This document shows, in pieces, positions 5,325 to 52,565 of a stretch of DNA of 64,000 nt. Every line of letters starts with the position of its first letter. Position 1 is the first letter of the stretch. This DNA comes from an uncultured Candidatus Saccharibacteria bacterium (GTDB lineage Bacteria; Patescibacteriota; Doudnabacteria; UBA920). The DNA is taken from NCBI GenBank assembly GCA_964402965.1, contig CAYODY010000001.1:5724-69723 (forward strand), read 5' to 3'. The translations under genes and the position numbers were made by a program. Under the pieces are notes generated by a model, which was not told the DNA's origin, searched no databases, and worked only from the letters and a program-made list of their open reading frames with translations.

Positions 5325-6767
5325 ATGTCAGATGAATCTTTGCACCCCACAGGGGAACCTAAGAAACCGTTAATTGCGTCAGAACAAATGCGCAAGTTTT
5401 TAAATATGGAGTCTGGTCAATCACAGCAAGAACCACTACATGCGGGAGATATTCCACCAGACTTACCATTTTTAGAAACATTAGAAACTCCACCAAAAAA
5501 TGCTTTGGAAATAATGAGTGCAGGTGCAAATCCAAAAGTTGGAGAAGGGAAACATTCAAATCCAATCACTCAAATTTTGCGTCCTTCTACAGAAAAAGGC
5601 CACGAAGCATACGCGTTTGTTCTTTGGGCATTAAAGAGTATTGTTCCGTACGTTGTAATTTTCGCTATTGGGCTTGGCTTGTACTTTTTCTATTTCAGCG
5701 ATTTTTCTATTAACAATTTATTCAAGTCCAATAACTTAACAATTGAAAATGTTAGTACGACAACAAATGCAGATTTGGAAAAACTTAAGACTTCTGAAAA
5801 AATAAATTACGATGCTTGGATAAAACAATTTTTCTTTGAAGTAAATGATGCTGAAATTATTTCTATGGATACAGATGTATCTGGAAATGGTTTAACTAAC
5901 TTTGAAAAATATTTATTAAATTTAAATCCGAAAGTTTACAGTACTCGAGGGGGCAATCAGCCTGATGGGCAATTGGTAATAAATGGCACAAGTCCATGGA
6001 CCGGAAAACCTTTCACTGACAAACAAAAAGAATTAGTAGATAAATACTTAAATAAGGAAGTAATTAGTAATCGCATTACTGCTGCGGCATTAACACGTGG
6101 TGCAACAAAATTTGCGGAATATGTAAATCCTGATTCTCCATACTACATAACTCCAAGTACAGAACAAACCGGAGTACCTCAAACACCTGGTAGTTCAGGA
6201 ATCTATGAGCCAACAAATACAAACCCTGAAATTGTAAACAATCAAACGGCGGGGAATGTAGCACAGCAAACACAGAATCAATCTCAAGGAAATCTAAATT
6301 CAAACACAGATATCAATCTAAGTGTTCCTGGAAGAATAGAAATTCCTTCAAACAATATTTCAGTACCATTAATATGGACTACCGCTGTTGCAAATTTTGA
6401 AAAGGACTTAAAAAAGGGAGTTGTTCACTACCCAGGAACAGCGCTTCCAGGTCAAACTGGAACAAGTTACATTTCTGGACATTCCAGCGGATATCTTTGG
6501 GACAAGTCACCATACAAAACAATTTTTGCTGGTTTAGGAAATGTAAAAGATGGTACTTCGTTTACAGTTACAGTAACTCTTAAAAATGGAAAACAGGTTA
6601 GGTATAATTATGTTGTTGAACGTCGTGGGGAGTATGCAGCGAACGATCAAGCACAATTTGTGAACACAGCAGATTCTGTTGTAGCGCTATCTACATGTTG
6701 GCCAATAGGAACTACAGCAAAACGATTAGTTTTGTTTGGAAAACTCACTCAAACAGAGAATCTATAG
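5325..6767 (+). CDS. sortase-family transpeptidase (Cys type) with a long N-terminal cytoplasmic/low-complexity region and one TM helix
   Basis: The C-terminal ~150 aa carries the sortase catalytic triad context. This is VVHYPGTALPGQTGTSYISGHSS (His), ALSTCWPIG (the TLxTC-type Cys, codon tgt) and AKRLVLFG (Arg). A TM helix lies at about residues 100-125. Confidence 0.7.
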   Translation: MSDESLHPTGEPKKPLIASEQMRKFLNMESGQSQQEPLHAGDIPPDLPFLETLETPPKNALEIMSAGANPKVGEGKHSNPITQILRPSTEKGHEAYAFVLWALKSIVPYVVIFAIGLGLYFFYFSDFSINNLFKSNNLTIENVSTTTNADLEKLKTSEKINYDAWIKQFFFEVNDAEIISMDTDVSGNGLTNFEKYLLNLNPKVYSTRGGNQPDGQLVINGTSPWTGKPFTDKQKELVDKYLNKEVISNRITAAALTRGATKFAEYVNPDSPYYITPSTEQTGVPQTPGSSGIYEPTNTNPEIVNNQTAGNVAQQTQNQSQGNLNSNTDINLSVPGRIEIPSNNISVPLIWTTAVANFEKDLKKGVVHYPGTALPGQTGTSYISGHSSGYLWDKSPYKTIFAGLGNVKDGTSFTVTVTLKNGKQVRYNYVVERRGEYAANDQAQFVNTADSVVALSTCWPIGTTAKRLVLFGKLTQTENL

Positions 6768-35052: not shown

Positions 35053-38000
35053 ATGAAATATATGAACAATTACGAATCTAGTCCGCGTTCAGTTTCAAGT
35101 TATGGCACTCAAGCAAAGCCGTCTTTTCGAGACTTGGCGCTTAAGAGTGCTGTTTTTGTAACTGCATTTTCGATGGTCTTTTCAGTTTTCATGCCAATAG
35201 CAAAAACTGCACAAGCCAACCATGATCCATTCAATGGTCAGGTATTTGTTAAAGAAAATAAAAACCATAAGGTAGATATTTGTCACGCTCCAGAAGGTCA
35301 AGGTGGAGCAAAATATAATCAGCAAAATGTGAGTATTGATTCAATTGTAAAAAACAATGGACATGACTCTCATTCTTCAGATGTAATCCCACCATTTCAC
35401 TACAAAGAAAAAAATAACTCTCAAAATGTAATTTCTTATAGTGGCAAAAATTGGAATTCATTAAACGAAGCTATTTGGAATGCAGATTGTAAAGTAGCAA
35501 AGTTAACTCTACTTAAAAAAGTTCAGGGTGGAGACGCTCTAGCTACTAGCTGGACTCTAAACGCTGATGGACCAGTAGATTTATCTGGTGCAACAGGCAC
35601 AAGCGCTGTTTCAAATAAAACAGTTCCTGCTGCTCAATACACTCTTTCAGAAACTGGCCCATCTGGATACTCAGCATCAAATTGGGAATGTGTTAACAAA
35701 TCTACTCAACCGGTTGCTGTAACTGGAGGAAATATTGTTACTTTAACAGATAGTTCCGAAGTAACATGTACAATTACTAATACTTTTATTGATGTGGAAA
35801 TCGATCCATGTCTTTTAGATAACATTGTAAATGAAGATTGTAACCCAGATCCATGTGATGAGTTAACTAAGAATTTGCTCACAAATCAGGTAATGGATTG
35901 TAATCCATGTGATTTAGAATCTGCAGTAAATAACCCAGATTGTAACCCAGATCCTTGTGATCCTAATATCGTCGCATCAAAGCATGATTCAGAATCAAAT
36001 AATGAAAATGATAATTGTCCAAAGCCAAAAAAGCGCTATTTAGTTATTAAAAAAGTTTGGCAAGGTTTTGAAGGTGAAGCAGGTCCTTCTAATAAAGGTG
36101 AAATTCAGGTTAATGTAAACTCAGACCTAGATGAAGAAGAATGTGATTACGACAAAAAAGGGGAGTTTTCTTGTAAAATCCGTTTCACCGAAGGCACAAC
36201 TGTTTCTATTGATGAAGAAAATATTCCAGCTGGATGGACAGTAGATCAGTCAACAGTAGGCGACATAGTTCCAAATTGTGATGAAGATTCCGAAGATGAT
36301 AATGTTGGGCCTTTCAAACTATTTGGCAAAAAAGACGACAAGGGTGATGAAGATGATAAAGATGATAAAGATGATAAGGATTGTACACATACAATCGTAA
36401 ATGTTTACAAACCAGCGGAACCTTGTGGAACAGAATTAGTAGCGAACGGAAATTTTGAACTTCCAGAAGTTAAGGATGGTGCTAATTGGGAAGTTTTCCC
36501 ATCAGGTACTCCAGGAATGGGTTGGTCTGTTAATTGGGTTCGCGAAAGCAAAGACTCTCCAGTTCCAGCTAATATGGAATTGCATGAAGGCGTAAATGGA
36601 TGGCTAGCACATAGCAGTAACCAATACGCTGAATTGGATTCAGACTGGGGAGGTCCTTCTAGTAATCAAAATGGCGAAGATGCATCTGTTGTTATGTACC
36701 AAGATTTAATTACTGTACCAGGCGGAACATACACAGTTAGCTTATGGACATCTCCACGTCCAGGCCAAGGCAATGCTCAAAACAAGACTGAAGTCAAAAT
36801 GGGTTCTACATTGCTAGATACTATTATTGAAGATGGGTCTTCAAACAGCAATACTGTTTGGACTAAGCACACTTACAGTTTTGTAGCAGAAGAATCAATG
36901 ACCCGTTTAAGCATTACAGACTTAGGTGTTGGTAATACTCTAGGTGGTTTTGTAGATGATGTTTCTGTAAAACAAGATTGTCTTTCAAACGTTACAATCT
37001 GTAAATATGATAATACTGAAACTCCACTATCTAACTGGAATGTATTATTAAAGGGCGATTTGTTAGAAACAGTTACTGTAAATTCTAATAGTTCAACTGG
37101 GGCTAACTCTGTAAACGCACTGGAATCAGGCCAAGATTATTTGGTTGAAGTTTCAGGGACATGGCAAAATCGTACATTCGAAACTGTAGATGCAAGTTAC
37201 ACAACTCCAGACAGCTGGTCCACAGTACTTCCTGCCCCTCAAGGTGGTTACCCGGATGACTTGTTGGAAACTCAAATAAATGGAAATTTTGTAAATTGGG
37301 GTCCTTACTCAAGCGGTCATAAATATCAGCTAACAATGGCTGGTAATGGAAGTACAGCAAATTTCAGAGTATTCGATGGTGATGCAAATACTAATACTCA
37401 ATTCCCAGATTGGTTCGGAGATAATATTGGATCTTTAACAGTTAAGATTTACCCTGTATACCAAGGAATCACTGGTGTTAGTGGTTGTGTAACTTTAGAA
37501 AATGTTCCGTACAACAGCTATAAGCTTGATGAAATAATGCAAGCAGGTTGGGAAAACCAATCCGGTCAAAACACAACTTCTGTTGTAGATTCATCTACTG
37601 AAACATTTAATCTAGTAAACAAATGTACTGGTGAAGAATGTCGTCAAACAAAACCACAACTACACTTAATTAAAGTAGTGTGTGATGATTTCTCTGACAT
37701 TCAAGGAAACTATAGTGCAGATGAATATGATGATACTAATGGTAACTATGTTCACTTCAACAATTACCCAGAATTTAATAACGTTGTAAAACCTGTTAAC
37801 CCAGAAGAAATCCCAAGTTCCGAATCTGGTTGTGAAACAAGATCTGGTTGGAGCTTTACTCTTTCTTCTGATCAAAACCAAGATCAGGATGTACAAACAG
37901 TGACTACTGGTGAATCAGGAGAATATGTTGGCGATCTACCAGAAAGCGGAGTTCTATGGGTTAGCGAAGTAATGCAAAAAGGTTACGACTTTGGTGCCAT

Positions 38001-39318
38001 CCGTTGTTACAACGATGCTCTAAATGGGGATAACCTAGAATTCATAAACTTAGAAGGTGATTTGCCAGCAAATGTTTACTGTATTGCATACAACATTGAA
38101 CAAATAGTGCCTTGTGAAGTTACTCCTATTTACGCGGTAAGTGGTGCAGCAACACAATTCCTTGGATTAAAAGAAGGTTCTGCTCCAACTGATTTGAAAA
38201 ACCCAGCAGATTATTCTGGTGGTTCAGCAGGTGCTGTCCCTGTAACTCCAACTGGTTATGCAGGAGCATGGGATGGTTCGGCTTTAGATCCTATTATGAC
38301 TGCCTTACCTGGAGCAGTTTACGTGAGCAATGACACGGTACAACCAACCTTTGGTGGTGGTGCAGGTCACGATGGTTCAGTGGATTCATGGAGACTGTTC
38401 AGCGATACCTTTACTATTCCAGCTGGTGCAACAGGAATATCTTCACCAAGTTTGCACTTTGCAGCGGATAATGAAGTTTCAGTATTCTTTGATGATGTCT
38501 TAATTGGTTCAAGCGCAAGCTTTGGTTCTGTAACCAGCGTTGCTCTTCCGTCACTAACACCAGGAACTCACACATTGAAGTTTGCTGTTAAGAATTACGC
38601 TTTTGACCAAACAAATAACCCAACAGGTGTTATCTATAAGTTAGATACAATTACATATGACTGTGATAGTCATGGCGACTCTCACCGCAACCTAGCTGGT
38701 ATGGTTTATTTGGATGAAGACCAGGATGAAACTAAAGATCCTGAAGAAAATCCAATAGAAGGTCTAACAGTTAAACTTATACGCGCTACTGCAGATGATG
38801 AAGATGAAGACTTGAATTTGGAAGAAGAAGAAATTGCTTCTGATGTCTCTGATGTAGATGGTAATTACTCATTTAGTGATGTAGCTGATGGATGTTATAT
38901 CCTACGTGAAGTCCCTGAATCTTACCAACAAACAGAACCTCCTGTAACACATGAGTATTATGTTAAAGTAGGGGATGCAGATTGTAACTTTAATCTAGTT
39001 ACTTTCGCAGACTACTTGTTTAAAACAGCTAACGCAGCTGACTCTTCTACAGTATTCGTTGCGTACACAGGACAACCACTAAACTTTGGAAACTTTTTGT
39101 CAGGTGGTTCTAATGGTGGTGGTTCAAGAGGCGGCTCTAGTGGAGGTTCTACTCCATTAAATCCACAAGTTTTGGGTGATACCACAACAGTACCTAGCGT
39201 ACTAGGAGCTACTACAGAGCTTCCTCGCACAGGTTCTCCAATCTCAGTACTATTCGTACTAATCACCCTGTTAAGTGGGGCAGTTTTGGCACCAAAAGTG
39301 CTTAAAATTACTCGTTAA
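35053..39318 (+). CDS. giant LPXTG-anchored surface adhesin (1421 aa) with Cys-rich and acidic repeats and Cna-B/SpaA-like modules
   Basis: An N-terminal signal/TM is present. There are DCNPDPCD-type Cys repeats (about 35.80-35.98 kb) and a DDKGDEDDKDDKDDKD acidic repeat (about 36.33-36.38 kb). Prealbumin-like Cna-B motifs are present (SDVDGNYSFSDVADGCYILREVPESYQQTEP; ...VTCTITNTF). A Gly/Ser linker precedes the sorting signal LPRTG (39220-39234), a hydrophobic stretch and the basic tail KVLKITR. Confidence 0.75.
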   Translation: MKYMNNYESSPRSVSSYGTQAKPSFRDLALKSAVFVTAFSMVFSVFMPIAKTAQANHDPFNGQVFVKENKNHKVDICHAPEGQGGAKYNQQNVSIDSIVKNNGHDSHSSDVIPPFHYKEKNNSQNVISYSGKNWNSLNEAIWNADCKVAKLTLLKKVQGGDALATSWTLNADGPVDLSGATGTSAVSNKTVPAAQYTLSETGPSGYSASNWECVNKSTQPVAVTGGNIVTLTDSSEVTCTITNTFIDVEIDPCLLDNIVNEDCNPDPCDELTKNLLTNQVMDCNPCDLESAVNNPDCNPDPCDPNIVASKHDSESNNENDNCPKPKKRYLVIKKVWQGFEGEAGPSNKGEIQVNVNSDLDEEECDYDKKGEFSCKIRFTEGTTVSIDEENIPAGWTVDQSTVGDIVPNCDEDSEDDNVGPFKLFGKKDDKGDEDDKDDKDDKDCTHTIVNVYKPAEPCGTELVANGNFELPEVKDGANWEVFPSGTPGMGWSVNWVRESKDSPVPANMELHEGVNGWLAHSSNQYAELDSDWGGPSSNQNGEDASVVMYQDLITVPGGTYTVSLWTSPRPGQGNAQNKTEVKMGSTLLDTIIEDGSSNSNTVWTKHTYSFVAEESMTRLSITDLGVGNTLGGFVDDVSVKQDCLSNVTICKYDNTETPLSNWNVLLKGDLLETVTVNSNSSTGANSVNALESGQDYLVEVSGTWQNRTFETVDASYTTPDSWSTVLPAPQGGYPDDLLETQINGNFVNWGPYSSGHKYQLTMAGNGSTANFRVFDGDANTNTQFPDWFGDNIGSLTVKIYPVYQGITGVSGCVTLENVPYNSYKLDEIMQAGWENQSGQNTTSVVDSSTETFNLVNKCTGEECRQTKPQLHLIKVVCDDFSDIQGNYSADEYDDTNGNYVHFNNYPEFNNVVKPVNPEEIPSSESGCETRSGWSFTLSSDQNQDQDVQTVTTGESGEYVGDLPESGVLWVSEVMQKGYDFGAIRCYNDALNGDNLEFINLEGDLPANVYCIAYNIEQIVPCEVTPIYAVSGAATQFLGLKEGSAPTDLKNPADYSGGSAGAVPVTPTGYAGAWDGSALDPIMTALPGAVYVSNDTVQPTFGGGAGHDGSVDSWRLFSDTFTIPAGATGISSPSLHFAADNEVSVFFDDVLIGSSASFGSVTSVALPSLTPGTHTLKFAVKNYAFDQTNNPTGVIYKLDTITYDCDSHGDSHRNLAGMVYLDEDQDETKDPEENPIEGLTVKLIRATADDEDEDLNLEEEEIASDVSDVDGNYSFSDVADGCYILREVPESYQQTEPPVTHEYYVKVGDADCNFNLVTFADYLFKTANAADSSTVFVAYTGQPLNFGNFLSGGSNGGGSRGGSSGGSTPLNPQVLGDTTTVPSVLGATTELPRTGSPISVLFVLITLLSGAVLAPKVLKITR

Positions 39319-46643: not shown

Positions 46644-47384
46644 ATGGAAGAGCAATACATTCTACATTATCAACCGATGGTTACTTTGTCTGACTATAGA
46701 ATAGTTGGGGCAGAGGCGTTGGTGCGTCGTGTTGAAGGTAAAAAAATAATTTCACCTAGCGACTTTATTCCAGATGCTGAGCGCACTGGGAAAATTATTT
46801 CCATTGGACAATGGGTGTTAGCAGATGTGTGTCGTCAAATTAACGAGTGGCAGGGGAGCGGAGTCGAGCCTGTTCCTATAGCGATAAACATTTCTGCACG
46901 TGAACTTTTCCATACCAATTTTACTGAAAATGTTTTGGAAGTTGTGAAGGCTGCAAAAGTAGATCCAAAACTAATTAAATTTGAGTTAACAGAAACTTTC
47001 CCAGTAGAAGAACTGGAGCGTGCCGATAAAATTCTTAAGCAACTAAAAAAACAAGGTTTTACCTTGCTTATAGATGATTTTGGTACCGGGTACGCGTCTT
47101 TAAAATATTTAACTTATTTACCGTTTGATGGTGTAAAGATAGACCAGACTTTTGTTGCAACACTCCCAGATAGTTTGCCAGATGCCGCTATTATTTCTGC
47201 AGTTTGCGGATTAGCGAGACAATTAAAGTTAAGAGTCATTGCTGAAGGTGTCGATAAAAAGTCACAGTTAAATTTCTTGCGCGCTGTTGGCTGTAATTCG
47301 GCACAAGGTAACTATTTTTGCAAAGCTGTTTCAGCAGAAGCTCTTACTAAATTATTGCAAGGGAAGCGCAAATTGCCTGCTTAG
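46644..47384 (+). CDS. stand-alone EAL-domain protein (putative c-di-GMP phosphodiesterase)
   Basis: Motifs EALVRR, ELTE, LLIDDFGTGYASLKYL, DGVKIDQTFV; 246 aa with no GGDEF domain. Confidence 0.8.
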   Translation: MEEQYILHYQPMVTLSDYRIVGAEALVRRVEGKKIISPSDFIPDAERTGKIISIGQWVLADVCRQINEWQGSGVEPVPIAINISARELFHTNFTENVLEVVKAAKVDPKLIKFELTETFPVEELERADKILKQLKKQGFTLLIDDFGTGYASLKYLTYLPFDGVKIDQTFVATLPDSLPDAAIISAVCGLARQLKLRVIAEGVDKKSQLNFLRAVGCNSAQGNYFCKAVSAEALTKLLQGKRKLPA

Positions 47385-47428: not shown

Positions 47429-48355
47429 TTAACTTAGCTTAAAGTCTTTATATCCTCGCAAAAAGTCGTCCATTTTGGTCGGCTTTTTTCCTTCTAATTG
47501 AACAGACATTAGTTCAAGGTAAGTGTCTTTTGCACATGGGATTATTGCTCGGTTTGCTGGGTCACGCGGTTCGTCTTGTGCAACTACACGGCATTCCAAA
47601 ATTTTTAACTGTTTTTCAGGCTCGCTTTCAACTGGTGAACATTTTGTATAGATCCCAGGCCACAACGCAAATGCACGCCACATGTTGTATATCTCTTGTG
47701 CTGTTTTCGCAGTAAAGTCTACAAAACCATCTTCTTTTTTAATTAACTTGGTGGAAGTAGCTTCGTCATGAATTTGTGTTCGTGGTTCAATGCCGTTGTC
47801 TGCGTACACGGGAAGTAGATCAATTAAGATATGCGCAGAAAGATATGAAAGTTTTTCTGCTAGAGTTAGAAATGTATCTGTTGGTTCAATGTCTATTGCA
47901 CCTTGAGCAATTATGTCACCATGGTCAACAAGCTCGTCAAGAATGAAAATAGTTGTGCCGGTTGTAGTTTCTCCGTTGAGTAAGGCATATTGAATTGGTG
48001 CAGCTCCTCTGTATTTTGGTAGTAACGAAAAATGCACGTTAATTGTTTTTAACGGTGGAATATCTATGAGTTCTAGTGGAAGTATTTTGCCATAAGAGAC
48101 GACAATAAAAATATCTGCGTTGAGTTCTTTTAGATGCTGAATAAACTCCGCATTGTTCTTTACTTTTTCGGGTTTAGATATTTTTAACTTGAGCTCATTT
48201 GCACGGTCGGAGATTGCAGATGGCGTAAGAATTTGTTTACGTCCAACGAGCGCGTCCGGACTGGTGACAACTTCTAAAATTTCGTGCCCCGCTTCGTGTA
48301 ACGCAGTTAGGATTGGTGCTCCAACAATAGATGTTCCAAAGAAAACTATTTTCAT
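47429..48355 (-). CDS. fmt: methionyl-tRNA formyltransferase
   Basis: MKIVFFGTS ... INVHFSLLPKYRGAAPIQ (the formyltransferase N-H-D catalytic region); 308 aa. Confidence 0.9.
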   Translation of the reverse strand: MKIVFFGTSIVGAPILTALHEAGHEILEVVTSPDALVGRKQILTPSAISDRANELKLKISKPEKVKNNAEFIQHLKELNADIFIVVSYGKILPLELIDIPPLKTINVHFSLLPKYRGAAPIQYALLNGETTTGTTIFILDELVDHGDIIAQGAIDIEPTDTFLTLAEKLSYLSAHILIDLLPVYADNGIEPRTQIHDEATSTKLIKKEDGFVDFTAKTAQEIYNMWRAFALWPGIYTKCSPVESEPEKQLKILECRVVAQDEPRDPANRAIIPCAKDTYLELMSVQLEGKKPTKMDDFLRGYKDFKLS

Positions 48356-48382
48356 ACTTTTAAAATATATTATGCTAATTCA

Positions 48383-48949
48383 TTAAACCTTCAACTTTTT
48401 AACAAGCGCGCGGAAAATCTCCGCTTCGTATTGGCAGTCTACAATTGCATTGTGTCTGTTTTCAATTTTCTTAACACCCAATGCTGTACCAACATCTTCC
48501 AAAGTAAATCCAGCAAACTTTTTAGGATTAGTTAATTTCTTGTGTTTCGCCATGTAGAAGTAACAAAGAGGCCATAAATTAAATGTGTATTGCAAAGTAA
48601 ATGGGTATTTCATTTTTACAGAACGATATGCGGCAGGGAAAAAGACAATATCTAAATTTCCGCCGTACATTGCAGGGGTTACATCTGAACCAAAAGTTTT
48701 ATTAAACTTTTTTAGTGCTGTTGCCATGCTTGGAGCATTTTTTAAATCTTCTGCTGAAATCTTATTTACAGCCATGGCTTCGGGGTCGCGTTTTGCCCAT
48801 CGTTGAGGTTTAACAAAAGTAGAAAAAGACTTTTTCTCTTTCAAAGTTTTACGGTCAAGCAAAATTGCCGCAATTTGAATAATCTCGTGCTTGGTTACAT
48901 CTAGTCCTGTCATTTCTAGATCGAACAGTAAAATATCTTTTTTGAACAT
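48383..48949 (-). CDS. orn: oligoribonuclease-like DEDDh 3'-5' exonuclease
   Basis: Exo I is LFDLEMTGLD (compare Orn WIDLEMTGLD), Exo II is GGNLDIVFF and Exo III is RHNAIVDCQYE (H-x-A-x-x-D). 188 aa, Orn-sized. Confidence 0.65.
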   Translation of the reverse strand: MFKKDILLFDLEMTGLDVTKHEIIQIAAILLDRKTLKEKKSFSTFVKPQRWAKRDPEAMAVNKISAEDLKNAPSMATALKKFNKTFGSDVTPAMYGGNLDIVFFPAAYRSVKMKYPFTLQYTFNLWPLCYFYMAKHKKLTNPKKFAGFTLEDVGTALGVKKIENRHNAIVDCQYEAEIFRALVKKLKV

Positions 48950-49024
48950 AATTTAGGCTTATTTAAGGGTAAATTTCATTTTTAAACTTAGTTAGCTATT
49001 ATTCGCTGCAGTATCCAGCTACAA

Positions 49025-49558
49025 TTAGCCAGCTACAATGCGTTTAAATACTTCCGCGGCTAGCCGTGCTTTTTCTAACGCATTGCTTCTATTTTTAATT
49101 TTCAAATTAAAATGTTGAAACAGTGTTTCTAGAGTAGGCATTTTTTTAATGCCATAGTGCAAGGTGTAAACATATCCCAATGACCATAGATCTAGAATAT
49201 GCGCATCGTACTCGTAAGGGATGAAAGTTTTTTTAAAAGCTTGTCTTAAAAATTGCACATTCTGAACTGTGTGAGTTGCTAGCAGGGGAGTGTATCCAAA
49301 TTTAGTTGTGAAATTTTTTATTACTTCGTGCAGTTTTGGACTTGTTCTTAGGACATCAAATGGCACGTTCAAAAGTTGAGCGTGTTGTTCTAATGTTTGA
49401 TCAATAAAACTAACTTTAACATAAGAGTTAAAAAAATCTTTTTCTAAAAGATTATCTTTGTCGAGTAATATTGCAGAAAGTTGAACTATTACGTCGCGAT
49501 CTAAATTGGACCCAGTTGTTTCTACTTGGAAAAATAGTATGTCTTTTATGAATTTCAT
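49025..49558 (-). CDS. catalytically degenerate oligoribonuclease-like paralogue
   Basis: Same fold and length, and a paralogue of 48383..48949. The DEDDh residues are replaced. Exo I is FFQVETTG (D to Q), Exo II is VQNVQFL (D to N) and Exo III is NRSNALEKA (H to S, D to K). Confidence 0.55.
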   Translation of the reverse strand: MKFIKDILFFQVETTGSNLDRDVIVQLSAILLDKDNLLEKDFFNSYVKVSFIDQTLEQHAQLLNVPFDVLRTSPKLHEVIKNFTTKFGYTPLLATHTVQNVQFLRQAFKKTFIPYEYDAHILDLWSLGYVYTLHYGIKKMPTLETLFQHFNLKIKNRSNALEKARLAAEVFKRIVAG

Positions 49559-50052
49559 TTTTTTTCTGCGTATTTTGGTAATAGTTCTTCACCTGTAGTT
49601 ATCTTTTCGAACTTATCTATTATTAAGATGTTATTTAAATGATCTATTTCGTGCTGTAACACTCGCGCAAGGAAGGTATCGTCAGTAATGGTAAACTTTT
49701 CTCCATTAGTATTGTAAGCTTCTACGGTAATTTTCTTTGGGCGTTTTACTGTTCCAAAAACACCTGGGAGTGACAAGCATCCTTCTTCCATTTCAGTCAT
49801 TACTTTTGAACTCTTTGTAATTTTAGGATTGATGATGGGAAAAGCAGGGAGTCCAGCATCTTCTAAATAAATTAGAGCCATATCCAAACTTTTGCTAACT
49901 TGAGTACACGCAAGACCAACACCATTCGCAGAAATTACGGTGTCGTGCATGTTTTTTATTAATCGTAAGATGTCTTTCTTGAGGGGGAACTTTAACTCCT
50001 CAACTGGTTTGCGCAGCACTTGCGCTGGTAGTTTTGCAATTGGTAATATCAT
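49555..50052 (-). CDS. def: peptide deformylase
   Basis: GVGLACTQV, EGCLS and QHEIDHL are the three PDF motifs. Confidence 0.9.
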   Translation of the reverse strand: MILPIAKLPAQVLRKPVEELKFPLKKDILRLIKNMHDTVISANGVGLACTQVSKSLDMALIYLEDAGLPAFPIINPKITKSSKVMTEMEEGCLSLPGVFGTVKRPKKITVEAYNTNGEKFTITDDTFLARVLQHEIDHLNNILIIDKFEKITTGEELLPKYAEKK

Positions 50053-50321
50053 TTCTTGTTTTCAGCGTTATATTTCTTGATTAAATAGGCAAATAGTTTG
50101 CCGGGGGTTTTTACTTTCGGATTTTCCATTATCTCCCCAGCAATTTTGCGTAATGTGTCTTCGGGGTAGGTAACTGCCATTTTAAGATAGAATCCAAAAT
50201 GGGCACGATCATTAAATAGATTTGCCAAATCATCAGCTAAGACATGTGCTTTGCTATGTAATTTTGGGTCACGTTTGCGGACCAATTTGTGCTTTGGAAC
50301 CAAATCTTTTAGAGAATCCAT
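50049..50321 (-). CDS. hypothetical small basic protein, first gene of the def-fmt operon
   Basis: 90 aa. Its stop overlaps the def start (ATGA). No motif recognised. Confidence 0.4.
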   Translation of the reverse strand: MDSLKDLVPKHKLVRKRDPKLHSKAHVLADDLANLFNDRAHFGFYLKMAVTYPEDTLRKIAGEIMENPKVKTPGKLFAYLIKKYNAENKK

Positions 50322-50377
50322 ATATACATTATACCTTACTCGCTAAAATTGCGCGAAAACTGTATAATATTAAGGAT

Positions 50378-51232
50378 ATGACTACTAAATCAATCTTATT
50401 AGCAATCATAGTTTTAGGTATATTTATTGGAATTATGGAAAAAGTTCCACAGCGTTCTTGGGATTGGTTTTCTAACACTTCTATTGGTAACCAAGTTTTA
50501 AATTACAAATCAGGGAATCAGGTTTTACCAGACCCACTACGCGGACTTATTGACCCAAATATTAAGAGTCAATTAACCATGGAAGGCGTGGTGAAATATA
50601 CAAATTTACAACGTGGTACAAATGGACAGTCTACACTAAAGATAAATGCAAAATTAAATGCTGCTGCAATGGCAAAAATTGATGATCTTTTTGCTCAGCA
50701 ATATTTTGAACACAAATCTCCAAATGGTAATACTCCTGCAGATATAATTAAGGCACAGGGCTACGAGTATATTGTAGTTGGAGAAAATTTGGCGTTAGGA
50801 AATTTTAAAGACGACGAAACTTTAGTACAAGCATGGATGGATAGTCCAGGGCATCGTGCGAATATTTTAAATCACAAGTATCAAGAAATTGGTGTAGCAG
50901 TAAAAAAAGGAATGTTTGAAGGTAACGAAGTTTGGTTGGCTGTGCAAGAGTTTGGTGCTCCACTTTCTGCATGCCCTCCAGCAAATCAAAGTATAAAAAC
51001 TCAACTAGATGCAAACAAGTCTTTACTGGCAGAGTACGAAACTACTTTAAACAGACAAAAATCTGATTTAGATAGCAATAGTTTTGCAAGTCCTGCTGAG
51101 TACAACAGAGCGGTCACACAATACAATATTTTAGTAAAAAAGACTCGTGAATTAAGCGAGAGAACCAAAGAGTTGGTGGATCAATATAACGATTCTGTAA
51201 ATAATTTTAATAGTTGTCTAGAAAGTAATTAG
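50378..51232 (+). CDS. CAP/SCP (PR-1/YkwD-like) domain protein with N-terminal TM and C-terminal coiled coil
   Basis: Start at ATG 50378 (MTTKSILLAIIVLGIF), downstream of a TATAAT box at 50363. The CAP motifs are GENLALGNFKDDETLVQAWMDSPGHRANILNHKYQEIGVAV. Confidence 0.65.
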   Translation: MTTKSILLAIIVLGIFIGIMEKVPQRSWDWFSNTSIGNQVLNYKSGNQVLPDPLRGLIDPNIKSQLTMEGVVKYTNLQRGTNGQSTLKINAKLNAAAMAKIDDLFAQQYFEHKSPNGNTPADIIKAQGYEYIVVGENLALGNFKDDETLVQAWMDSPGHRANILNHKYQEIGVAVKKGMFEGNEVWLAVQEFGAPLSACPPANQSIKTQLDANKSLLAEYETTLNRQKSDLDSNSFASPAEYNRAVTQYNILVKKTRELSERTKELVDQYNDSVNNFNSCLESN

Positions 51233-51245
51233 AAATTCACAAAGA

Positions 51246-52565
51246 ATGATAGATATTGCAGGTTTAAAAATTAGTAATATAACAAAGCGCGAGTTACTAG
51301 AACAAGTCCGTGAACGTGTCGCTAAGAAGCAAAAAACTTTTGTAACAACACCGTACTCAGAGTTTTTGTACGCGAGCATGCGTAACCCAGAAGTCCGGGA
51401 AATGTTAAATAAGTCAGATTTCGCAATACCAGATGGGATTGGGATTCTTTGGGCTCATCTATTTTTGTCTCGTCCTTTTAGTTTTAAGAATTTCTACCTA
51501 AAAATTATCCAGTCGTGGTTTCAGGTGGTGTGGACAGGGGCATCTATTATTTTCAAACCGAGTTTGCTGTATAGAGAGATTCCAGAAAAAATTGTTGGAG
51601 CAGATTTAATTTGGGATTTGTGTGCAATGGCAGAACGCGAGAATTTTTCTGTGTTTTTATTAGGTGGCTTTGGTCATACTACGGAAATTGCAAAACAGAA
51701 ACTTTTACAAAAATTTCCTAAACTGCAAATTGCAGGGACTTCAAATAAGAATCCTAAAGATGTTGAAGTTTTGGATCAAATCAATTCTGTTAAACCAGAT
51801 TTGCTTTTTGTAGCTTTCGGGCCAATAAAACAAGAGAAGTGGATTGCGGAAAACTTACAAAATATTTCAGCGAGTTTTGCAATTGGTTTAGGAGGAACTT
51901 TTGACTACATAGCAGGAACTAAAAAAGCACCACCAAAATTTATCCGTCGTATTGGATTGGAATGGTTGTATCGGTTAGTTACTCAACCAAGTAGGTTAGC
52001 AAGAATTTACAAAGCGGTTGTTGGTTTAATAATTTCGCTCATGCGACACAAAGTTTTTTCTTCAATGCCTTTTCGAAAAAATGTAATAGCGGTTGTTCTA
52101 AATGATGAGGGTAAAATTTTTATTGCCCAACGGAATCCCAGAGATCCGTACTTAGTAAAAACAGCAGGTGGAATTATGCTTGAGAAGTATGCAAATTATT
52201 GGCAGTTCGCTCGTGGTGAAGCTGAAAAAAATGAAACCTTAGAGGAAACAGGTAGACGTGAGTTGATGGAAGAAACTGGAATTACATCTGTTGAGCTAAA
52301 AAAAATTTCTAAACAAACTAGCTCGTATCTTTGGAACAATTCATTAAGACCTTTATTTGGGAATATATACAAAAAAAAGGGACAAAATCAAAACATTGTC
52401 TATTTTAATTTTGTTGGAGAAGATTCAGAAATCAAGTTAGACCAAAGGGAGTTAGTCAATTATAAATGGGTAAAAATGAGTGATTTAGATTCAACTTTGC
52501 ACCCGGAACAAGCAGACGTAATTCGTATAATAAAAGAAGATCTGGGTGTTGAAAATCAGGCTTAA
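51246..52565 (+). CDS. fusion protein: WecB/TagA/CpsF-family glycosyltransferase (GT26) plus C-terminal NUDIX hydrolase
   Basis: GT26 motifs FAIPDGIGILWA, FLLGGFG and GGTFDY in the first ~260 aa. The Nudix box GEAEKNETLEETGRRELMEETGI (G-x5-E-x7-REUxEExGU) follows in the last ~150 aa. Confidence 0.7.
   Translation: MIDIAGLKISNITKRELLEQVRERVAKKQKTFVTTPYSEFLYASMRNPEVREMLNKSDFAIPDGIGILWAHLFLSRPFSFKNFYLKIIQSWFQVVWTGASIIFKPSLLYREIPEKIVGADLIWDLCAMAERENFSVFLLGGFGHTTEIAKQKLLQKFPKLQIAGTSNKNPKDVEVLDQINSVKPDLLFVAFGPIKQEKWIAENLQNISASFAIGLGGTFDYIAGTKKAPPKFIRRIGLEWLYRLVTQPSRLARIYKAVVGLIISLMRHKVFSSMPFRKNVIAVVLNDEGKIFIAQRNPRDPYLVKTAGGIMLEKYANYWQFARGEAEKNETLEETGRRELMEETGITSVELKKISKQTSSYLWNNSLRPLFGNIYKKKGQNQNIVYFNFVGEDSEIKLDQRELVNYKWVKMSDLDSTLHPEQADVIRIIKEDLGVENQA

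Follow-up and report, generated by a model that had tools for sequence, protein, structure and literature searches.

A free-standing pseudo-exonuclease conserved within the def-fmt operon of Candidatus Doudnabacteria

The def-fmt operon of an uncultured member of the Patescibacteria was analyzed in a 64-kb window, that is, the whole stretch of DNA under study (64,000 nucleotides). Five open reading frames (ORFs) lie head to tail on its minus strand in the order p90-def-exoI-exoA-fmt; they had been read as an operon in a first-pass annotation made from the sequence, and all five were confirmed at their coordinates. The gene names used here are p90 for the first gene of 90 amino acids (aa), exoI for the degenerate 177-aa gene, and exoA for the intact 188-aa gene. 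We found that the def-fmt operon of Doudnabacteria contains a conserved pseudo-exonuclease, exoI, which is a free-standing protein. Homology to an enzyme family, loss of the catalytic residues, and purifying selection, which together define a pseudoenzyme, were all observed for this gene.

The features of the cluster, listed in the direction of transcription with lengths in aa or nucleotides (nt), are as follows.

-10 hexamer TATAAT, positions 50328-50333, minus strand: ends 6 nt before the p90 ATG; read in the sequence
p90, positions 50049-50321, minus strand: 90 aa, first gene of the operon
def, positions 49555-50052, minus strand: peptide deformylase, 165 aa; PF01327 at 146.5 bits and TIGR00079 at 131.6 bits (cutoff 103.95)
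exoI, positions 49025-49558, minus strand: DEDDh-fold pseudo-exonuclease, 177 aa; PF00929 at 32.6 bits (cutoff 24)
exoI-exoA spacer, positions 48950-49024, minus strand: 75 nt, without a minus-strand terminator-like site
exoA, positions 48383-48949, minus strand: intact DEDDh 3'-5' exonuclease, 188 aa; PF00929 at 93.5 bits (cutoff 24)
fmt, positions 47429-48355, minus strand: methionyl-tRNA formyltransferase, 308 aa, last gene; TIGR00460 at 257.9 bits (cutoff 201.5), PF00551, and PF02911

Loss of the catalytic site and conservation of exoI

The catalytic residues of exoA are D10 and E12 (FDLEMTG), D100 (GGNLDIV), and H166 and D171 (HNAIVD). At the equivalent positions, exoI carries Q11 and E13 (FFQVETTG), N100 (VQNVQFL), and S158 and K163 (RSNALEKA). 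The motif strings quoted for both genes in the first-pass annotation were thus present. The catalytic columns of the two proteins map onto each other in a BLASTP alignment (28% identity, E = 8e-21) and in a profile-profile comparison (probability 100%, E = 9e-42). The degenerate copy had been described as having lost all DEDDh residues; four of the five are gone from the window copy, but the motif-I Glu (E13) is retained. The two genes had also been given the same length, which holds only approximately (177 vs 188 aa).

The catalytic positions were compared across 81 exoI sequences (76 of them from exoA-containing loci), consisting of the window copy and 80 orthologues, and across 73 exoA sequences. 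The DEDHD set was kept in 72/73 exoA orthologues, whereas an intact pentad was found in none of the 81 exoI sequences. The motif-II Asp position of exoI held Asp in 0/81 and Asn in 58, and the motif-III Asp position held Asp in 0/81 and Lys or Arg in 73. Among the 76 sequences from exoA-containing loci, 13 different residues occupied the general-base His position and 51 different five-residue site patterns were counted. Conservation was much higher in exoA than in exoI at the following columns only: the Asp and Glu of motif I, the Asp of motif II, the His of motif III, and R54.

At least one acidic residue was present in motif I of every exoI sequence. Because this motif-I carboxylate is always retained, the motif-III Lys or Arg would be salt-bridged to it and would fill the former metal site. 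Invariant polar residues, near the old site or elsewhere, were D6, D22, D33, D35, E39, H59, and H120. Furthermore, the signature G136-x-x-K139-x-P141-T...T145 was specific to the dead clade and was present even in lineages without exoA.

The exoI frame was intact, at 177-179 aa, in 80/80 genome loci, and no frameshifts were found in more than 130 orthologues. The ratio of nonsynonymous to synonymous substitution rates (dN/dS, or omega) was calculated by the Nei-Gojobori method (NG86) for eight unsaturated orthologue pairs and ranged from 0.003 to 0.065 for exoI. In most of these eight pairs, the omega of exoI was equal to or lower than that of def, exoA, and fmt. The median pairwise aa identity over 2080 species pairs was 59% for exoI, 56% for p90 and def, 53% for fmt, and 51% for exoA. 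None of the other cluster genes is therefore as conserved as exoI. The pseudo-enzyme reading had been proposed in the first-pass annotation together with two outcomes that would speak against it, retained catalytic columns and relaxed selection. The columns were not kept and selection was not relaxed, and the reading was upheld.

A search of 1.84 billion representative proteins with an exoI-profile hidden Markov model (HMM) returned 712 matches at E <= 0.001. In a neighbour-joining tree, the top-scoring clusters were all degenerate and formed one clade; exoA fell in another clade, made up of active small DEDDh proteins. At 28% identity, exoI and exoA are no closer to each other than either is to other small DEDDh proteins of the candidate phyla radiation (CPR). 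Outside the exoA clade, the active relatives with the highest scores (P0373, P0380, and P0378; about 180 aa, DEDHD) were 31-34% identical to exoI. Their setting is not that of def and fmt: they follow ybaB-recR or gyrA or precede cysS. Such top-scoring active proteins lie in other uncultured bacteria, at loci L081 (1176-1718), L088 (278-820), and L168 (916-1455), and in L081 the start of the gene overlaps the recR stop.

Judged from their sequences, exoI and exoA are old relatives and not recent tandem duplicates, because they share only 28% identity and exoI falls in a clade of its own. The description of the pair as tandem paralogues, taken as a recent duplication, was therefore abandoned. 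The inactivation of exoI is likewise judged to predate the diversification of the sampled clade.

Synteny, transcription and rate covariation of the cluster

Relatives of the cluster were collected by a genome scan with one genome per GTDB species, which returned 80 loci. All 80 were from metagenome-assembled genomes (MAGs) of Patescibacteria, and the specifically named ones were Candidatus Doudnabacteria. Many third-party MAG records are titled 'uncultured Candidatus Saccharibacteria', at odds with the Doudnabacteria titles of orthologous loci; this title looks like a generic placeholder. The cluster was conserved in more than 130 Patescibacteria loci. Homologues of exoI numbered more than 330, and the best 120 were 55-100% identical, with 116 of these having a length of 177-179 aa.

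The conserved gene order was gltX<, wecG<, p90>, def>, exoI>, exoA>, fmt>, mltG<. The presence of two DnaQ-fold genes between def and fmt, noticed in the first-pass annotation along with a proposal to check synteny in relatives, was real and recurrent. exoI was followed by exoA, in the order p90-def-exoI-exoA-fmt, in 74/80 genome loci; one locus was cut by the contig end, and five (L070-L074) had no exoA after exoI. In L070-L073, fmt starts 0 nt after exoI, and in L074 fmt is likewise directly next. A metagenome scan seeded with exoA gave 55 orthologue loci. exoI lay upstream of exoA in 51/51 loci with room upstream, and the five-gene order recurred in all 51 of these informative loci.

The co-occurrence of the two genes was asymmetric. 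exoA without exoI was not seen in any of the 51 metagenome loci with upstream room. exoI without exoA at the locus was found in three lineages, namely L070-L074 and the divergent L086 and L085. In L086, the exoA slot (5538-5945) is 409 nt of non-coding sequence with many AGTAAACAG-like repeats, and that of L085 (747-1100) holds an unrelated 117-aa ORF with no Pfam match. Decayed exoA remnants were sought in L086, L085, and L070-L073, and none was found. The divergent exoI lineage L082 does carry the start of exoA, at the contig end. The core p90-def-exoI-fmt survives where exoA is absent, and exoI is always directly downstream of def. In pairs among L070, L071, and L072 of the exoA-less lineage, the omega of exoI was 0.037-0.042.

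At the junctions, 4-nt ATGA overlaps were found at both p90/def and def/exoI; the first of these had been reported correctly as the overlap of the first two genes, but it is not the only one. The gap between exoA and fmt is 27 nt. Across loci, def and exoI overlap (ATGA or 1 nt) in 19/80, and the exoI-exoA spacer is 30 nt or shorter in 28/72, with a median of 65 nt. No coding-strand terminator-like sites were found between the cluster genes. An exact TATAAT was located 4-9 nt before the p90 start in 50/76 orthologous loci (at exactly 6 nt in 41), and a Shine-Dalgarno (SD)-like motif upstream of p90 was found in only 5/77. Given the TATAAT placed 6 nt before the p90 ATG, the rarity of the SD motif, and the lack of an internal terminator, the operon is most likely transcribed as one leaderless mRNA starting at the p90 ATG.

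In E. coli and many other bacteria, the canonical def-fmt operon is a single transcript with def ahead of fmt. The cluster described here resembles it in having def before fmt, and both enzymes pass their equivalog models; the def motifs GxGxAAxQ, EGCLS, and HExxH are readable in the sequence. However, two DEDDh-fold genes are inserted between def and fmt, p90 heads the operon, and the mRNA would be leaderless.

The genes that evolve together were ranked by partial Mantel tests on pairwise evolutionary distances, with shared divergence removed. Two backgrounds were used, either the other cluster genes or the flanking gltX, wecG, and mltG, and the def-fmt pair was the built-in positive control. 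The partial Mantel r values are given below in that order of backgrounds.

exoI-exoA: 0.55 / 0.55
p90-exoI: 0.44 / 0.46
def-fmt: 0.40 / 0.38
p90-exoA: 0.17 / 0.35
exoI-fmt: 0.10 / 0.26
def-exoI: -0.01 / 0.14

The exoI-exoA and p90-exoI pairs covaried more than the def-fmt control in both backgrounds. By this ranking, p90, exoI, and exoA form one group and def and fmt another. Adjacency is not the explanation, because def-exoI and exoA-fmt are neighbours too.

Family membership of the DEDDh-fold proteins and p90

Both exoA and exoI passed the gathering score of PF00929 (RNase_T; DEDDh/DnaQ-like superfamily), and the RNase H-like alpha/beta fold of DnaQ type was found, with a confident AlphaFold2 (AF2) model for exoI. 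The catalytic pentad is present in exoA and lost in exoI. Therefore, exoI is a fold member and not an active member of the DEDDh superfamily. The closest named matches of both proteins were PolC/DnaQ-type exonuclease domains, and their sequence and fold neighbours were PolC, DinG, and epsilon. exoA also matched PHROG 192, 'DNA polymerase exonuclease subunit', at 103.7 bits. A comparison list of exonucleases, in which the figures carry no label, ran as follows.

PolC exonuclease domain: 20.6
S. aureus DinG exonuclease domain: 19.7
E. coli epsilon: 18.9
ERI1: 18.7
RNase T: 18.4
REXO2/Orn: 16.6
Exuperantia (non-catalytic): 16.0

The narrower families were rejected. The two genes had been annotated as oligoribonuclease-like, and this identity did not survive: exoA reached 24.4 bits against the Orn model NF003765 of NCBIfam (cutoff 106), over residues 4-44 only, and exoI gave no match. 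The PDB Orn entry 1j9a likewise aligned to residues 3-34 only (E = 0.0056). Against the RNase T model TIGR01298, exoA scored 20.9 bits (cutoff 246.2) and exoI gave no match. Epsilon (DnaQ) was rejected for exoA at 33 bits with TIGR01406 (cutoff 222.7) and 40.1 bits with NF004316 (cutoff 196), and for exoI at 32.1 bits with TIGR00573 (cutoff 71.5). In the PF00929 match, exoA is covered from residue 8 to residue 179 (of 188) and exoI from residue 12 to residue 171 (of 177). The exonuclease domain therefore fills the whole protein, and neither exoA nor exoI has an epsilon-type C-terminal tail for binding alpha (PHP) or the clamp. A role in anti-phage defence was also rejected, because the PADLOC matches were generic DEDDh-domain matches only (PDLC01247, 82.8 and 43.7 bits) and the pair is surrounded by housekeeping genes (def, fmt, gltX, and mltG).

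Among known systems within PF00929, the exonuclease domains of PolC and DinG and the epsilon subunit of Pol III differ from exoA and exoI, which are stand-alone domains without a polymerase, helicase, or epsilon tail and pass no equivalog model; exoI differs further by its absent catalytic centre. The likeness to Orn/REXO2 consists of a length of about 180 aa, a single DEDDh domain, and, in exoA, the presence of the catalytic residues.

Pseudo-enzymes are well documented in eukaryotes; to our knowledge, bacterial ones have rarely been characterized. Eukaryotic dead DEDD-fold proteins include Exuperantia and Pop2-like proteins. Drosophila Exuperantia (PDB 5l80) has a non-catalytic DEDD fold, but it is eukaryotic, multi-domain, and found in another context, and it has no specific sequence relationship to exoI. 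In bacteria, pExoDinG is an uncharacterized pseudo-exonuclease domain of the DnaQ superfamily that has lost the C-terminal acidic residues and the general base, and its authors propose single-stranded nucleic-acid binding with a regulatory or structural role (PMC11981726). It resembles exoI in being a bacterial DnaQ-superfamily fold with a dead site. However, pExoDinG is DEDDy-type and helicase-fused, whereas exoI is DEDDh-type, free-standing, beside an active relative, and in a def-fmt operon. Inactive proofreading domains have also been described in some polymerases (PMC12926913). The bacterial dead exonuclease domains that we found described are helicase- or polymerase-fused. Our literature search returned no description of this operon or protein family, nor of a bacterial DEDDh pseudo-enzyme that stands alone, exceeds its active neighbour in conservation, and has a fixed place in a def-fmt operon.

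The p90 family was confined to the same clade as the cluster. It is very basic (median isoelectric point 9.8), has the invariant residues H22, H26, H41, and Y45, and is predicted as a four-helix domain (predicted local distance difference test, pLDDT, 83). Neither single-sequence nor profile searches of p90 against Pfam, NCBIfam, and PDB sequences yielded a usable match, and a Foldseek search of its model against the PDB found nothing. Its weak matches were to a phage 'transcriptional repressor' PHROG (E = 1.3e-5) and to PHAX-like and DnaD-like folds. A nucleic-acid-binding role of p90 is plausible, and, more broadly, a metal-related or nucleic-acid-binding role is possible.

Two further observations were made at the p90 locus. 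On the opposite strand, a CAP-domain ORF (cysteine-rich secretory protein family; 50222-51232, plus strand) has a mechanical TTG start inside p90; this overlap is probably an ORF-calling artefact, and gene calls on identical contigs give a shorter 284-aa product. In addition, p90, with its three invariant histidines, sits directly upstream of the metallo-enzyme Def with the 4-nt overlap.

Functional readings and neighbouring genes

The reading that we favour is that exoI is a pseudo-exonuclease kept for a non-catalytic job, as the core of a module with p90 and usually exoA; taken as a whole, we give it about an even chance of being right. The protein has a DnaQ-like DEDDh fold in which the two-metal catalytic centre has been dismantled, and it is retained by strong purifying selection. 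Its role would be to bind or scaffold, without catalysis, at the core of a small module for handling nucleic-acid 3' ends. It would work with the basic helical p90 and, for most lineages, also with the active 3'-5' exonuclease exoA, and the module would be co-transcribed with def and fmt yet evolve as a separate unit. The DEDDh fold is suited to holding a single-stranded 3' end. We infer the module role because of the asymmetry in co-occurrence, the rate covariation, and this 3'-end-binding nature of the fold; exoI itself may bind nucleic acid, and its substrate may be RNA or DNA. Since exoI outlasts its active neighbour exoA, the non-catalytic function is the important one.

Several points weigh against this reading. 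A physical association of exoI with exoA or with p90 is putative. The active/inactive partnership suggested in the first-pass annotation stood in so far as exoA always occurs with exoI and the two show the strongest rate covariation, but exoI is equally constrained in the three exoA-less lineages. Because exoI survives there, an exoI-exoA heterodimer is not obligate, and exoA cannot be an obligate partner unless an exonuclease encoded elsewhere in the exoA-less genomes substitutes for it. A translation-linked role could instead be read from the position of exoI beside def, which it overlaps by 4 nt. Because the partial Mantel test is liberal under shared phylogeny, what it tells is limited to the ranking of gene pairs. 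Furthermore, the former active-site positions of exoI vary freely, which argues against a precisely conserved ligand pocket there.

Under the translation-linked alternative, exoI would be a partner of Def, Fmt, the ribosome, or initiator tRNA; it might, for instance, dock Def or bind (f)Met-tRNA at its 3' end, and exoA would be an unrelated passenger. The constant position of exoI directly 3' of def, with an overlap in some loci, the persistence of the p90-def-exoI-fmt core without exoA, and the capacity of the DEDDh fold to hold a single-stranded 3' end are all consistent with it. However, the rate of exoI does not track that of def and tracks that of fmt weakly, compared with 0.38-0.40 for the def-fmt pair, and the nearest active relatives lie beside recR, gyrA, or cysS rather than def or fmt. 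We regard this alternative as unlikely.

Somewhat less probable still is a role in replication or repair. Here exoA would proofread or repair as a DnaQ-like exonuclease, with exoI as an epsilon-like accessory subunit that lacks catalysis. Every equivalog score for DnaQ and PolC was far under its cutoff. Moreover, proteins of 177 and 188 aa that consist of the domain only leave no room for an alpha-binding tail or a clamp-binding motif, and the operon partners are translation genes.

In a further alternative, the one nearest to the first-pass annotation, exoA would be an Orn analogue (a nanoRNase) that clears dinucleotides such as pGpG, and exoI would be a regulatory subunit or a sensor that binds nucleotides. 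Like Orn, both proteins are small and have a single DEDDh domain. EAL enzymes produce pGpG, which Orn-type nucleases normally clear, and an EAL gene whose product would make pGpG adjoins fmt in the window (46644-47384) and in several relatives. We consider this assignment improbable.

It is very unlikely that exoI is still a nuclease working through non-canonical residues. The seven invariant polar residues listed above and the motif-I carboxylate that is always present speak for such an activity. However, every member lacks two of the three Asp that bind metal, one of them replaced by a cationic Lys or Arg, and the general-base position is unconstrained. In addition, D6, D33, E39, and H120 are common to the active relatives and are therefore fold determinants, not a new active site. 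That exoI is a decaying pseudogene or a gene-calling artefact, as its low Pfam score and missing catalytic residues might suggest, is almost certainly wrong and was rejected by the intact frames, the dN/dS values, the top conservation in the cluster, and the confident AF2 model.

A more specific proposal, which we rate as a long shot, is that exoI and p90 form an accessory factor of the formyl-methionine cycle, in which the 3'-end cleft would hold initiator tRNA or another RNA 3' end, uncut, or present it to Fmt, Def, or the ribosome. If true, such a role would explain why exoI is locked between def and fmt and conserved above either enzyme.

The interest of the pseudo-exonuclease lies in a free-standing dead DEDDh protein being the best-conserved gene of a housekeeping operon in a minimal-genome lineage. 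Lineages of this kind lose useless genes quickly. The function of exoI would reveal a use of the 3'-end-binding fold without catalysis and would give roles to the exoI and p90 families. It might also uncover an unrecognized connection, in Patescibacteria, between the handling of nucleic-acid ends and the processing of N-terminal methionine. The 51 natural site patterns in exoI are, moreover, material for the study of how a metal site is dismantled and refilled.

Other genes of the window were also recorded. The EAL-domain gene (46644-47384, plus strand) is stand-alone and convergent to fmt, and it is of the cyclic di-GMP phosphodiesterase type (PF00563, 219.8 bits); an EAL gene lies near the cluster in a minority of relatives, for example L006, L008, L010, L020, L089, and L090. 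No Rfam family reached its gathering score across the 64-kb window, so no tRNA, rRNA, or riboswitch was detected. Upstream of the operon, one 439-aa ORF (51246-52565, plus strand) combines a WecG/TagA glycosyltransferase with a C-terminal NUDIX hydrolase domain. This fusion is apparently variable, as many related loci match the WecG part only (about 270 aa). At 35053-39318 (plus strand), a 1421-aa protein with SpaA/SdrD-type prealbumin-like fold domains is probably a large surface adhesin.

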